Made by a program: the position numbers. From UHGV virus genome UHGV-1742202: a stretch of DNA of 14,892 bases, one strand, 5' to 3'. Source of the stretch: a virus. The number at the start of each line of letters is the position of its first letter. The first letter of the stretch is position 1. Shown here piece by piece: positions 12,001 to 14,892 of the stretch.

Positions 12001-14892
12001 TTGTGCGCCAGATGCAGGATAAATTCCAGGTGCTGAAAGCTGTTCAGGAGAATATCCGTAAAACTGGCGGAAAAATAGACGACAGTAACAACGCTTATAT
12101 GGCGGAAGAACTCTTCCACGGGAAGGCGGAAAACGACCTGAACGTGATGAAGGAGCGCTACGTTCAGCCACTGGCTAAATTACTGGCGGACTACAAAATT
12201 GCGCAGGCCGATCTGGATGAGTACCTCTACGCCCGTCACGCGCCGGAACGTAACGCGCATATCGCGAAAATCAACCCGAAAATGCCGGACGGCGGTTCGG
12301 GGATGACCAACGCGGAAGCGGCGGAAATCATGCAGCGTGTGCGTAACAGTGGCAAACAGGCACAGTATGACCGTCTGGCAGGGATTGTTGACGATATGCT
12401 GGCTCGTCGCCGTGAGCTTATCCGTGAGGCCGGACTGGAAGAGAGCGGTGTGGTGGATGCCTGGCAGAACGCCTACCGTTACTACGTTCCTCTGAAAGGC
12501 CAGGATGTTGACGGTGTGGTGTCACTGCCCCGTACAGGTAAAGGCTTCACTATCGGCGGACGTGAAAGCAGGCAGGCCATGGGGCGTGCATCCCGCGCAC
12601 AGTCTCCGTCCACTCAGGCGATACAGGACTTGAGCGAATCGCTGATCCGCAATCGCAAAAATGAAGTAGGTAACGCCTTCCTGAAACTGGTACAGGATAA
12701 TCCAGACAAGGATTACTGGCAGGTATTCACCAATGAGCGACCGGACACCATGCGTGCGATTGCAGAGCGTGTTGATCCGGAAACCGGTGAAACCCGTCAC
12801 GAAGTTGTCGAACGTCCTGTACCGATGGCAATGATGGCAGACCGGTACTTCACCACCAAAAAGAACGGCAAAACGTACTACATCAAACTCCATGATCCGC
12901 GCCTGATGCGTGCGATGAAGAATATGGGACCGGAAACCAGTAACGCCGTAATCCGCACGCTGGGGAAAGTTAACCGCTTCCTGGCAACGGTGAACACGTC
13001 GTATAACCCGGAATTCCTGGTCAGTAACTTCATCCGTGACGTGCAGACGGCGGTGATGAACCTGAAGGCGGAGCAGGGAAGGAGCGACGGTAAACTGAAA
13101 GGGCTCGATAACTTATCCGCCCTGGCTGTGGTGAAAGACAGCCGGTCTGCCATGTCTGCCGTATACGCCCGTCTGCGTGGTAAAACCCTCACGGGCAACG
13201 GTGCGCAGTGGCAGAAGGTGTGGAAAGAGTTTGTTGAGGACGGAGGTAAAACCGGCTGGTTTAACATGGGTGACCTTGAAGGCCAGCAGAAGGAAATGGA
13301 TCGCCTTGTATCGCTGGCGAAGGGAGGATGGAAAGGCCAGAGTATCGGTGCATGGAATTCGTTCCTTAACCTTGTCGAGGATGCCAACGGGGCGGTTGAA
13401 AACGCTCTGCGTCTTTCTGCCTATAAACACGCCCGTGATGCTGGTTTGTCACGCCAGCAGGCGGCGTCTCTTGCCAAAAACATGACGGTGAACTTTAACC
13501 GTCGTGGTGAGCAGGGAGCGCTGATGAACTCGCTGTATATGTTTGCCAACGCCAGCATTCAGGGGACCGCAAACCTGGTGAGAACGCTCGGACATCTTAA
13601 TGGCGACGGGCCGTTACCGGAGCGCCTTCGCTGGAAGAATCTCAATGTACCGCAGAAAATCGCGCTTGCAGCTGTGGGAGCGGGTTATCTGCTTGGCTCG
13701 CTTAACCGCAGTGTTGCGGGGGAGGATGATGACGGGGTTAACTGGTATGACAAGGTGCCGTCTCATGTGAAAGAGCGTAACCTCGTCATTATGAAATCGG
13801 TGTTCGGGGGCAAGGCCGGAGAGTACTGGAGTATTCCTCTGCCTTACGGGTACAACGTTTTCTTCCTGCTCGGGCATACTGCTGAAGGTGTGGCAGCGGG
13901 CGACCTGACTGCTTCACGTGCTGCCGGTAATGTTGTCGGTGGTATCCTGGGGGCATTCAGTCCTGTGGGCAGTGAAACGTCGGAAACACTGTCCGGGGCA
14001 TTGCTGAAAAATGCAGCGCCGACCATTCTGCGTCCGTTTGCGAACCTTGCCATGAATGAAAACTTCATGGGGGCGCAGATTTACCAGGAGAACATGCCAT
14101 TTGGCACACCGAAACCGGACAGCCAGCTGGGCAGACGTTCAACGCCTGAGGCGTACAAGGCGTTTGCATCCTGGCTGAATGCGTTCTCAGGTGGCAGCCA
14201 GTATCGTCCCGGCGCGGTGGATATTACACCGGAATCGCTGAAATTCTGGATTGACTATATCTCCGGAGGGACAGGGCGCTTCATTTCCAAAACCACAGAT
14301 GCGGCGGTGAAATCGCTGAACGGTATTGATATACCGGAACAGCAGGTGCCCTTCCTGGGGAAAATTTCGGGTGAGGTGATGCCGTATGCTGACCAGCAGA
14401 AGATGTATGACCGGATGACGGAGGTTGCGCAGTACCACGCAGAGCTGAAGAGTCTGACCGGTGCAGAAAGAACGGCATTCATTGACGAGAACAACGGAAA
14501 ATTGTCGATGAACGGGCTTATGCAGGATACCCGGAAGAGACTGAAGGATTTGCGTAAACAGCGTGATGCCATTTATGCCGACAGTTCTCTCAGTCTGGCG
14601 CAGCAGGCGGCGATAGTGAAATCGGTAGAGCGGGATATGAAGGTTGCCGTGGATCGCTTTAACCGCGAGTACAACAAAAAAGTGGGAGTGGAGTAACAGA
14701 ACATGCCCCGTACTTTTGTACGGGGCATAACAGTACAATCAATGTGTATATATTTGTGTATATAGAAACAAGATGTTAGTGATGGTTTTATTGACAATGT
14801 ATTGATTTTATTATTGTTTTGCCTCTAACGATAATTACTATCGTAAGGCATACCATTCCTTATGTTTCAGAGGGTTAGCCATGGCACCCAAA

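Follow-up and report, generated by a model that had tools for sequence, protein, structure and literature searches.

The last part of the UHGV virus genome UHGV-1742202, positions 14697-14892 of a stretch of 14,892 nucleotides (here called the window), is an ordinary feature of a documented kind: a prophage attR junction, at an integration site known from the literature, and not a promoter and operator in front of a new gene. It is highly probable that this region holds the phage arm, the core and the host side of the insertion of a short-tailed, Stx-phage-like lambdoid prophage, which a tyrosine integrase placed in the 14-bp overlap of sapB and sapC. The identity of the junction, its core, its host sequence, the family of the integrase and the conservation of the repeats were all observed directly. 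To these we add a modest new detail, a probable arm-site architecture in common with Phi24B-type integrases. The main value of the analysis is a correction of annotation: the supposed AT-rich 'regulatory region' marks the edge of a prophage, with host DNA at the end of the window and no further phage gene behind the giant one that precedes the junction.

The prophage boundary in sapB/sapC

Similarity searches divide the region into sequence like that of Stx phages up to 14713 or 14728, a rare stretch of 109 bases, and 55 final bases of host DNA. A total of 186 Stx-type phage records match the window up to one of those two positions with 94-98% identity, and every match ends inside or at the end of a hairpin that follows the giant gene. 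The rare stretch, the attR arm (14729-14837, 109 bp, phage-derived), occurs in 5 of 5426 complete Escherichia coli genomes, the same five that carry the matching integrase arm. Base composition differs along the sequence, with a GC content of 35% for the whole of 14697-14892, 25% for the arm and 54.5% for the giant gene.

The junction has the properties expected of an attachment site. One short core stands at both ends of the prophage and in the empty host site, with the flanks exchanged; a tyrosine recombinase gene adjoins one junction; the host side is ordinary chromosome that is unbroken in most strains (14838-14892 is present in 5419 of the 5426 genomes, the phage arm in five, and sapB and sapC are contiguous in K-12); and sequence comparison finds repeated arm-type motifs in both arms together with an integrase that has an arm-binding domain. 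These relations could be followed in E. coli ML35, which is 100% identical to the window across 14300-14892. There the other end of the same prophage lies about 55 kb upstream, beside an intact sapC, with the tyrosine recombinase gene just inside it. In a three-way alignment of the K-12 attB, the ML35 attL and the window, the only shared segment is CTATCGTAAGGCAT (14838-14851), the 14-bp common core or crossover region, which is identical in attR, attL and the empty attB. The flanks are swapped as integration predicts: left of the core, the window carries phage sequence and attL carries that of attB, and right of the core the window matches attB.

The core coincides exactly with the overlap of the two host genes, from the sapC ATG to the sapB TAG. 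In K-12 this overlap is 14 nt, with sapB ending 14 nt past the sapC start (locus coordinates 4506 for the sapB end and 4519 for the sapC start). Because the core holds both the sapB stop and the sapC start codon, both host reading frames remain intact, and the sap operon is physically split by the prophage. Integration at this place has been described for prophages of E. coli clonal complex 119 (CC119), where prophages at 'sapB', Stx2a and others, are reported with a 13-bp attB overlapping sapC (Microb Genom 2023, PMC10132054, in its passages on sapB). Two CC119 lysogens that we aligned, 90-3040 and 2013C-3492, share with the window core the 13 bp at 14839-14851 and differ at 14838 and at the preceding arm base; the published figure of 13 bp is explained by this difference at the first core base.

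An earlier note, made from the window alone, had described an AT-rich intergenic region that reached 14892 and formed the junction of the giant gene with a different unit. The sequence is AT-rich and it is a junction, but 14838-14892 encodes on the minus strand the last 18 codons of host sapB (...LGAMANPLKHKEWYALR, C-terminus ...KHKEWYALR; TAG at 14838-14840), so the next unit is the host chromosome and not a phage gene. These bases are annotated as sapB in the E. coli genomes, and in ML35 sapB lies on the minus strand with its stop at window 14838-14840 and is followed by sapA. Separately, an annotated sapB that is 98-100% identical to the 55-bp end occurs in about 130 plasmid records, often of conjugative plasmids, whose hosts include Klebsiella, Enterobacter, Citrobacter and Salmonella; a few of these 'plasmid' records are 4.8-4.9 Mb long and are evidently chromosomes.

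The same note had read the region as a terminator or stability hairpin, operator repeats, a sigma-70 promoter with TTGACA as its -35 element, and a new gene that would begin at 14862 or 14881 and be served by AGAGGG as ribosome-binding site. Every listed feature exists at, or within one base of, the place given for it: the inverted repeat, the direct repeat, the TTGACA, the ATG codons at 14862 and 14881, and the AGAGGG at 14869-14874, 6 nt upstream of the second ATG. The model built on them has, in our estimate, almost no chance of being right. When the sequence is extended downstream in ML35, as the note had suggested, no gene starts here; reading the plus strand from 14862 and 14881 gives open reading frames (ORFs) of only 21 and 27 codons, antisense to the conserved SapB C-terminus, and the repeats match copies in the integrase-proximal arm instead.

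The TTGACA hexamer (14791-14796, plus strand) is likewise unsupported as a promoter element. A sigma-70 scan does not call the site, and no -10 hexamer was found 16-18 bp past it, where direct reading gives ATTGTT, TTGTTT and TGTTTT. The hexamer is not conserved, being TTAACA in both aligned CC119 lysogens, and it overlaps a match to the IHF consensus. It also appeared on the plus strand in 317 of 5000 shuffles (6%), a frequency of chance occurrence that makes it unremarkable alone. Klebsiella attR relatives also have a TTGACA, 28 bp from the core as against 47 bp here.

Probable arm-type repeats and a candidate bending site

By analogy with lambda, the attR arm may be regarded as the P arm, distal to int. 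No credible ORF was found in it, and an Rfam scan of 14500-14892 gave no family match; the sole result, ClpQY_promoter, was rejected as sub-threshold (15 bits, where the gathering score is 42; E = 0.5). What the arm does contain is a pair of direct repeats, TGTGTATATA, at 14743-14752 and 14755-14764 on the plus strand, with starts 12 bp apart. A direct repeat of at least 10 nt within 40 nt arose in 44 of 5000 shuffles of 14697-14892, and an inverted repeat of at least 11 bp with a loop of 3-8 nt in 4 of 5000 mononucleotide shuffles of the same 196 bases, so that both the repeats and the palindrome behind the giant gene lie beyond chance.

Most likely, to judge from sequence comparison, the TGTGTATATA pair represents integrase arm-type binding sites. 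As the arm is unmatched in the phage collection searched, attP had to be reconstructed, by joining the window arm through the core to the int-proximal arm of ML35. The motif GTGTAYAY occurs at 14744 and 14756 in the window and three times in the int-proximal arm (ML35 locus coordinates 21126, 21138 and 21157). That makes five sites in the reconstructed attP of about 430 bp, with only 2 others in 64 kb; the enrichment is optimistic, the motif having been defined after the data were seen, and the case is to that extent weaker. The first two copies are 12 bp apart in both arms, and the third int-proximal copy abuts the likely TTG start of int (MLTDTKLR...).

The repeats are also conserved in related elements, as the earlier note had required of a functional feature, although not as the operator it had in mind: copies of the motif stand in the int-proximal arm as well, and in the Klebsiella relatives of both arms no other block is as well conserved. 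The CC119 variants keep the repeats with 100% identity and have six changes elsewhere in the arm or core. One Klebsiella prophage, which occupies the start of the Klebsiella sapC and encodes a 79%-identical integrase, has a heavily diverged int-proximal arm in which the three repeats are kept as conserved islands. Among the matches listed in IMG/VR, at least 35 prophages at sapC share these three repeats, and in all of them the core lies 147 bp upstream; many matches of this paired-repeat pattern scan were unrelated low-complexity sequences or other elements, and only the 35 followed by an integrase were used. At two Klebsiella attR junctions a pair of TGTGTAY repeats, spaced 12-13 bp, stands about 108 bp from the core, and of all their sequence this block agrees best with the window. 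In these Klebsiella attR relatives we also observed a hairpin, CCGACAGCCATC...GATGACTGTCGG, about 17 nt before the two arm repeats, with a sequence unrelated to that of the window hairpin.

Direct repeats in such an arm need not be bound by integrase. In lambda attP the P arm also holds Xis and Fis sites as direct repeats, and Xis sites are confined to one arm. An excisionase or recombination directionality factor, Fis or a repressor, whether from phage or host, might thus bind the repeats, the palindrome or both; in ML35 a gene for an 80-aa helix-turn-helix protein is convergent with int, like xis in Phi24B, and could supply such a protein. We consider this improbable. The motif is present in both arms, with three copies abutting the int start, which is the pattern of integrase arm sites and unlike the one-arm Xis sites of lambda; it accompanies the Arm-DNA-bind_3 domain in integrases with identities of 30-79%; and the palindrome is common to phages with unrelated downstream modules. 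Integrase remains the preferred partner of the repeats.

Between the arm-type repeats and the core, and overlapping the TTGACA, lies a match to the IHF consensus (14795-14807, minus strand; AATCAATACATTG fits WATCAANNNNTTR). It is the only one on either strand of the whole 14.9-kb window, where 0.54 would be expected; its context is AT-rich, and the consensus survives the two substitutions of the CC119 variants. The corresponding part of Phi24B-type arms contains AATCAATGACTTA or AATCAATGGATTG. A reasonable reading of this sequence is a candidate IHF-type DNA-bending site. Next to the core, an imperfect inverted repeat (14825-14847; CTAACGATA / TATCGTAAG, 5-nt spacer, 8 of 9 positions complementary) was considered as a pair of core-type integrase sites and dropped, being weaker in the CC119 variants and having no counterpart in the Klebsiella arms.

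Several observations weigh against the attachment-site interpretation or parts of it. The collections searched yielded neither an excised attP nor a circular form of this phage, and sensitive blastn of the arm against 50,697 phage records gave no match. Two records that had seemed to offer a contiguous attP were rejected: the Klebsiella phage record with the 79%-identical integrase is a prophage with host flanks that ends before attR, and a Stx2a_JNE record has a host-like right end and not this arm. The assignment of the repeats to integrase draws on comparison only. The IHF match may be non-functional, because the Phi24B integrase does not need IHF (PMC7581858). A terminator scan calls the hairpin on the minus strand only (12 pairs, tail GTTCTGTTACT, 5 T in 8 bases). 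Finally, the window is not colinear with the RefSeq assembly of ML35 over about 5238-9392: window 450-5238 corresponds to ML35 1-4789 and window 5237-7480 to ML35 7153-9396, and window 7481-9391 has no ML35 counterpart. The window must then derive from a genome or assembly that is related to, but distinct from, that of ML35.

The hairpin behind the giant gene

The giant phage gene (6345-14696, plus strand, TAA at 14694-14696) is annotated as an LPD38/LPD5 domain-containing protein and is context for, rather than part of, the attachment site. It is an intact ORF of 2783 codons in the window and is annotated as frameshifted in ML35. Two other ORFs, of 567 and 422 aa, had been considered as terminase and portal; both assignments were rejected, the ML35 annotation being hypothetical protein and tail tip fibre protein. 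The hairpin (14703-14728, plus strand) begins 6 nt past the giant-gene stop and consists of a perfect, GC-rich 11-bp stem with arms ATGCCCCGTAC (14703-14713) and GTACGGGGCAT (14718-14728) and a TTTT loop. Its RNA folds with -21.6 kcal/mol (z = -4.7), and none of 200 shuffles folds as well.

The stem, CCCCGTAC/GT(A/G)CGGGG, stands behind the giant-gene stop in every variant examined, including phages that have a tail-fibre or other module in place of attP-int. It is kept in PA2, phage 86, STEC1589 and IMG/VR contigs, even before a module without int. Because it is conserved whatever module follows, the hairpin belongs to the giant-gene module and not to attP, and it marks a mosaic boundary. The earlier note had called it a weak terminator or an RNA-stability hairpin without a U-tract. 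The fold is stable and an element of transcript end or stability is plausible, whereas the canonical U-tract is missing: no T-run follows the stem on the plus strand in the window or in any of the six variants, whose tails there read AACAGTAC, GCTTAACG, TCTTAACA and TGATTAAG. The hairpin resembles an intrinsic (Rho-independent) terminator in having a GC-rich 11-bp stem and a 4-nt loop immediately past a stop codon, and differs from one in the coding-strand U-tract, so that it would be at most a weak or non-canonical terminator or a 3' stabiliser. In our view it probably forms the 3' end of the late transcript or stabilises it, or else acts as a weak, non-canonical terminator for that transcript.

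Which strand matters more is a fair question, since sapB transcription runs toward the hairpin and the scan's sole terminator-like call is on the minus strand. There the element could act mainly as a terminator or insulator, stopping sapA-sapB read-through antisense into the giant gene in the lysogen and leftward early transcripts in the circular phage. The window stem is perfect on both strands, at -22.4 kcal/mol for the minus and -21.6 kcal/mol for the plus strand. The natural variants point the other way. A common change from GTAC to GTGC leaves a U.G pair in plus-strand RNA and a C.A mismatch in minus-strand RNA, and in 4 of 6 variants the plus-strand fold is better by 4-6 kcal/mol, a cost borne by the minus strand. 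Across variants the loops are UUUU (in the window), GGAA, UGAA and AGAA; the last three are purine-rich tetraloops on the plus strand, of which GGAA fits GNRA, unlike their minus-strand complements UUCC, UUCA and UUCU. The minus-strand tail, moreover, is constrained by the last codons of the giant gene, and its T content may be incidental. A mainly minus-strand role is a live but less likely alternative, and we favour a plus-strand element at the end of the late transcript.

The attachment system and its relatives

At the other end of the ML35 prophage, the integrase gene (int, ML35 locus 21124-22353, plus strand) lies about 135-175 bp from the core at attL and is transcribed away from it. The gene for the 80-aa helix-turn-helix protein (xis-like; ML35 locus 22317-22559, minus strand) is convergent with int and overlaps its 3' end, the arrangement of the Phi24B-type 'inverted int' module; its product has no Pfam match. 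The integrase has an N-terminal Arm-DNA-bind_3 domain (E = 1.7e-21) and a Phage_integrase domain (E = 1.6e-20). It is 30% identical to the PA2 integrase, which is itself 97% identical to the experimentally studied integrase of Phi24B. A promoter scan of the int-proximal arm found no consensus site, and for this reason we propose neither an int promoter nor a sapC promoter.

Other observations concern this arm and the prophage behind it. In the ML35 attL arm (locus 20990-21010) the native CATAAGGAATGGT-ATG before sapC is replaced by AAAGAAGGTAATC-ATG, so that an AAGG Shine-Dalgarno-like motif is retained some 5 nt ahead of the sapC start codon; its counterpart in the Klebsiella arm, ACGGATTCAT-ATG, is weak. 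The sequence GTGCTTTAWTYTTGTNTGTT (ML35 locus 21070-21095, about 95-115 bp from the core) forms another conserved island, which is common to the E. coli and Klebsiella relatives and could be an accessory-protein site or a promoter element. Farther inside, ML35 locus 43249-44015, between the genes for the Q antiterminator and a SASA-family esterase, is the place of stx in Stx phages; no gene is annotated there, nor any stx gene from the Q gene to the lysis genes, and the ML35 prophage thus appears to be stx-less.

Taken together, these elements suggest how the site might work. In the circular phage on infection the order would be giant gene, hairpin, arm with two arm sites and the bend site, core, arm with three arm sites, and int, with a predicted circular junction in which 14729-14851 is joined to GATTACCTTC.... 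Integrase would be made from its own upstream region, as in Phi24B, whose promoter pInt was mapped by 5'-RACE (PMC3064807). We infer that integrase binds the repeats and IHF the consensus site. The N-terminal arm-binding domain of the integrase would engage the repeats while the protein bridges arm and core sites, and strand exchange would take place within the 13-14 bp in common with the sapB/sapC overlap, of which the window would hold one product.

The split of the operon invites a further thought, namely that the choice of site is not neutral and that, in the lysogen, the phage governs expression of the permease and ATPase half of the Sap putrescine/peptide transporter, a lysogenic conversion by operon splitting. 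On this account integration would keep both frames yet separate sapCDF from the sapA promoter; sapCDF would come to lie directly downstream of the leftward early (pL-type) transcription of the prophage, beside the integrase control region; and the arm next to sapC would supply the replacement AAGG ribosome-binding motif. We regard this as very unlikely. Whatever the expression of sapCDF, lysogens at the sapB/sapC site carry a split sap operon.

Integrases of this specificity are rare in E. coli, and the analysis provides an exact core and probable arm sites for one of them. The four other arm-bearing genomes include 90-3040, whose arm and core are 96-98% identical to those of the window. Thirty-six records named 'Stx2a-converting phage Stx2a_JNE...' have an integrase at least 99% identical to this one, and members of its family are found again in prophages that sit at the sapC start and have a Klebsiella-type core, one of them a Klebsiella pneumoniae prophage record. 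Two of the E. coli genomes have unusual arrangements. In 2013C-4830 (NZ_CP027325.1) the integrase arm and the attR arm are 346 kb apart on opposite strands, which implies a chromosomal inversion that had one of its endpoints within the prophage. In 90-3040 (NZ_CP027459.1), a strain included in the CC119 study, the arms are about 93 kb apart, consistent with the tandem sapB prophages reported in the sapB passages of that study (PMC10132054).

Three known systems bear comparison with this one. The CC119 prophages at sapB share its locus and the 13-bp attB overlapping sapC, but, as far as the sapB passages of that report describe them, the CC119 Stx2a phages at this site are long-tailed and lambda-like, whereas the prophage of the window has short-tailed late genes of the 933W/Phi24B type, the giant gene among them; those passages mention neither arm-type sites nor the hairpin (PMC10132054).

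The P arm of lambda attP and attR carries the integrase arm-type sites P1 and P2 and IHF sites, next to the COC' core. The window resembles this arrangement in its short core in common with attB, its AT-rich arm with direct-repeat arm sites, and a bending-protein consensus between arm sites and core. In lambda, int is directed toward attP and controlled from pL and pI with sib retroregulation, and the core is intergenic; here, by contrast, int points away, the core lies in a gene overlap, and the integrase belongs to another family.

A further parallel is Phi24B (vB_EcoP_24B; NAR 2011, PMC3064807; Front Microbiol 2020, PMC7581858). Its elements follow the same order: the giant gene, the hairpin, attP, int directed away from the core, and a small xis-like gene that converges on int and overlaps its 3' end. 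Each of the two phages has a P4-like integrase that contains an Arm-DNA-bind_3 domain and probably starts with TTG, but the two proteins are only 30% identical. The cores differ too: that of Phi24B is 24-25 bp long (TTATATCCATTTAACTAAGAGGAC...) and has another target, as against the 14-bp sapB/sapC overlap here. Phi24B and PA2 nevertheless have the same layout of two plus three repeats, with a pair of repeats 12 bp apart at the equivalent place of the distal arm, a pair and a single copy shortly before int, and a consensus of GNGTACAK where ours is GTGTAYAY. The minimal attP of Phi24B is 350-427 bp with near-equal arms (PMC7581858), a size that would make sense if the outermost repeat, which lies about 180 bp from the core, were required. 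Thus the sapB/sapC integrase appears to have its attP layout in common with the experimentally studied integrase of Phi24B.

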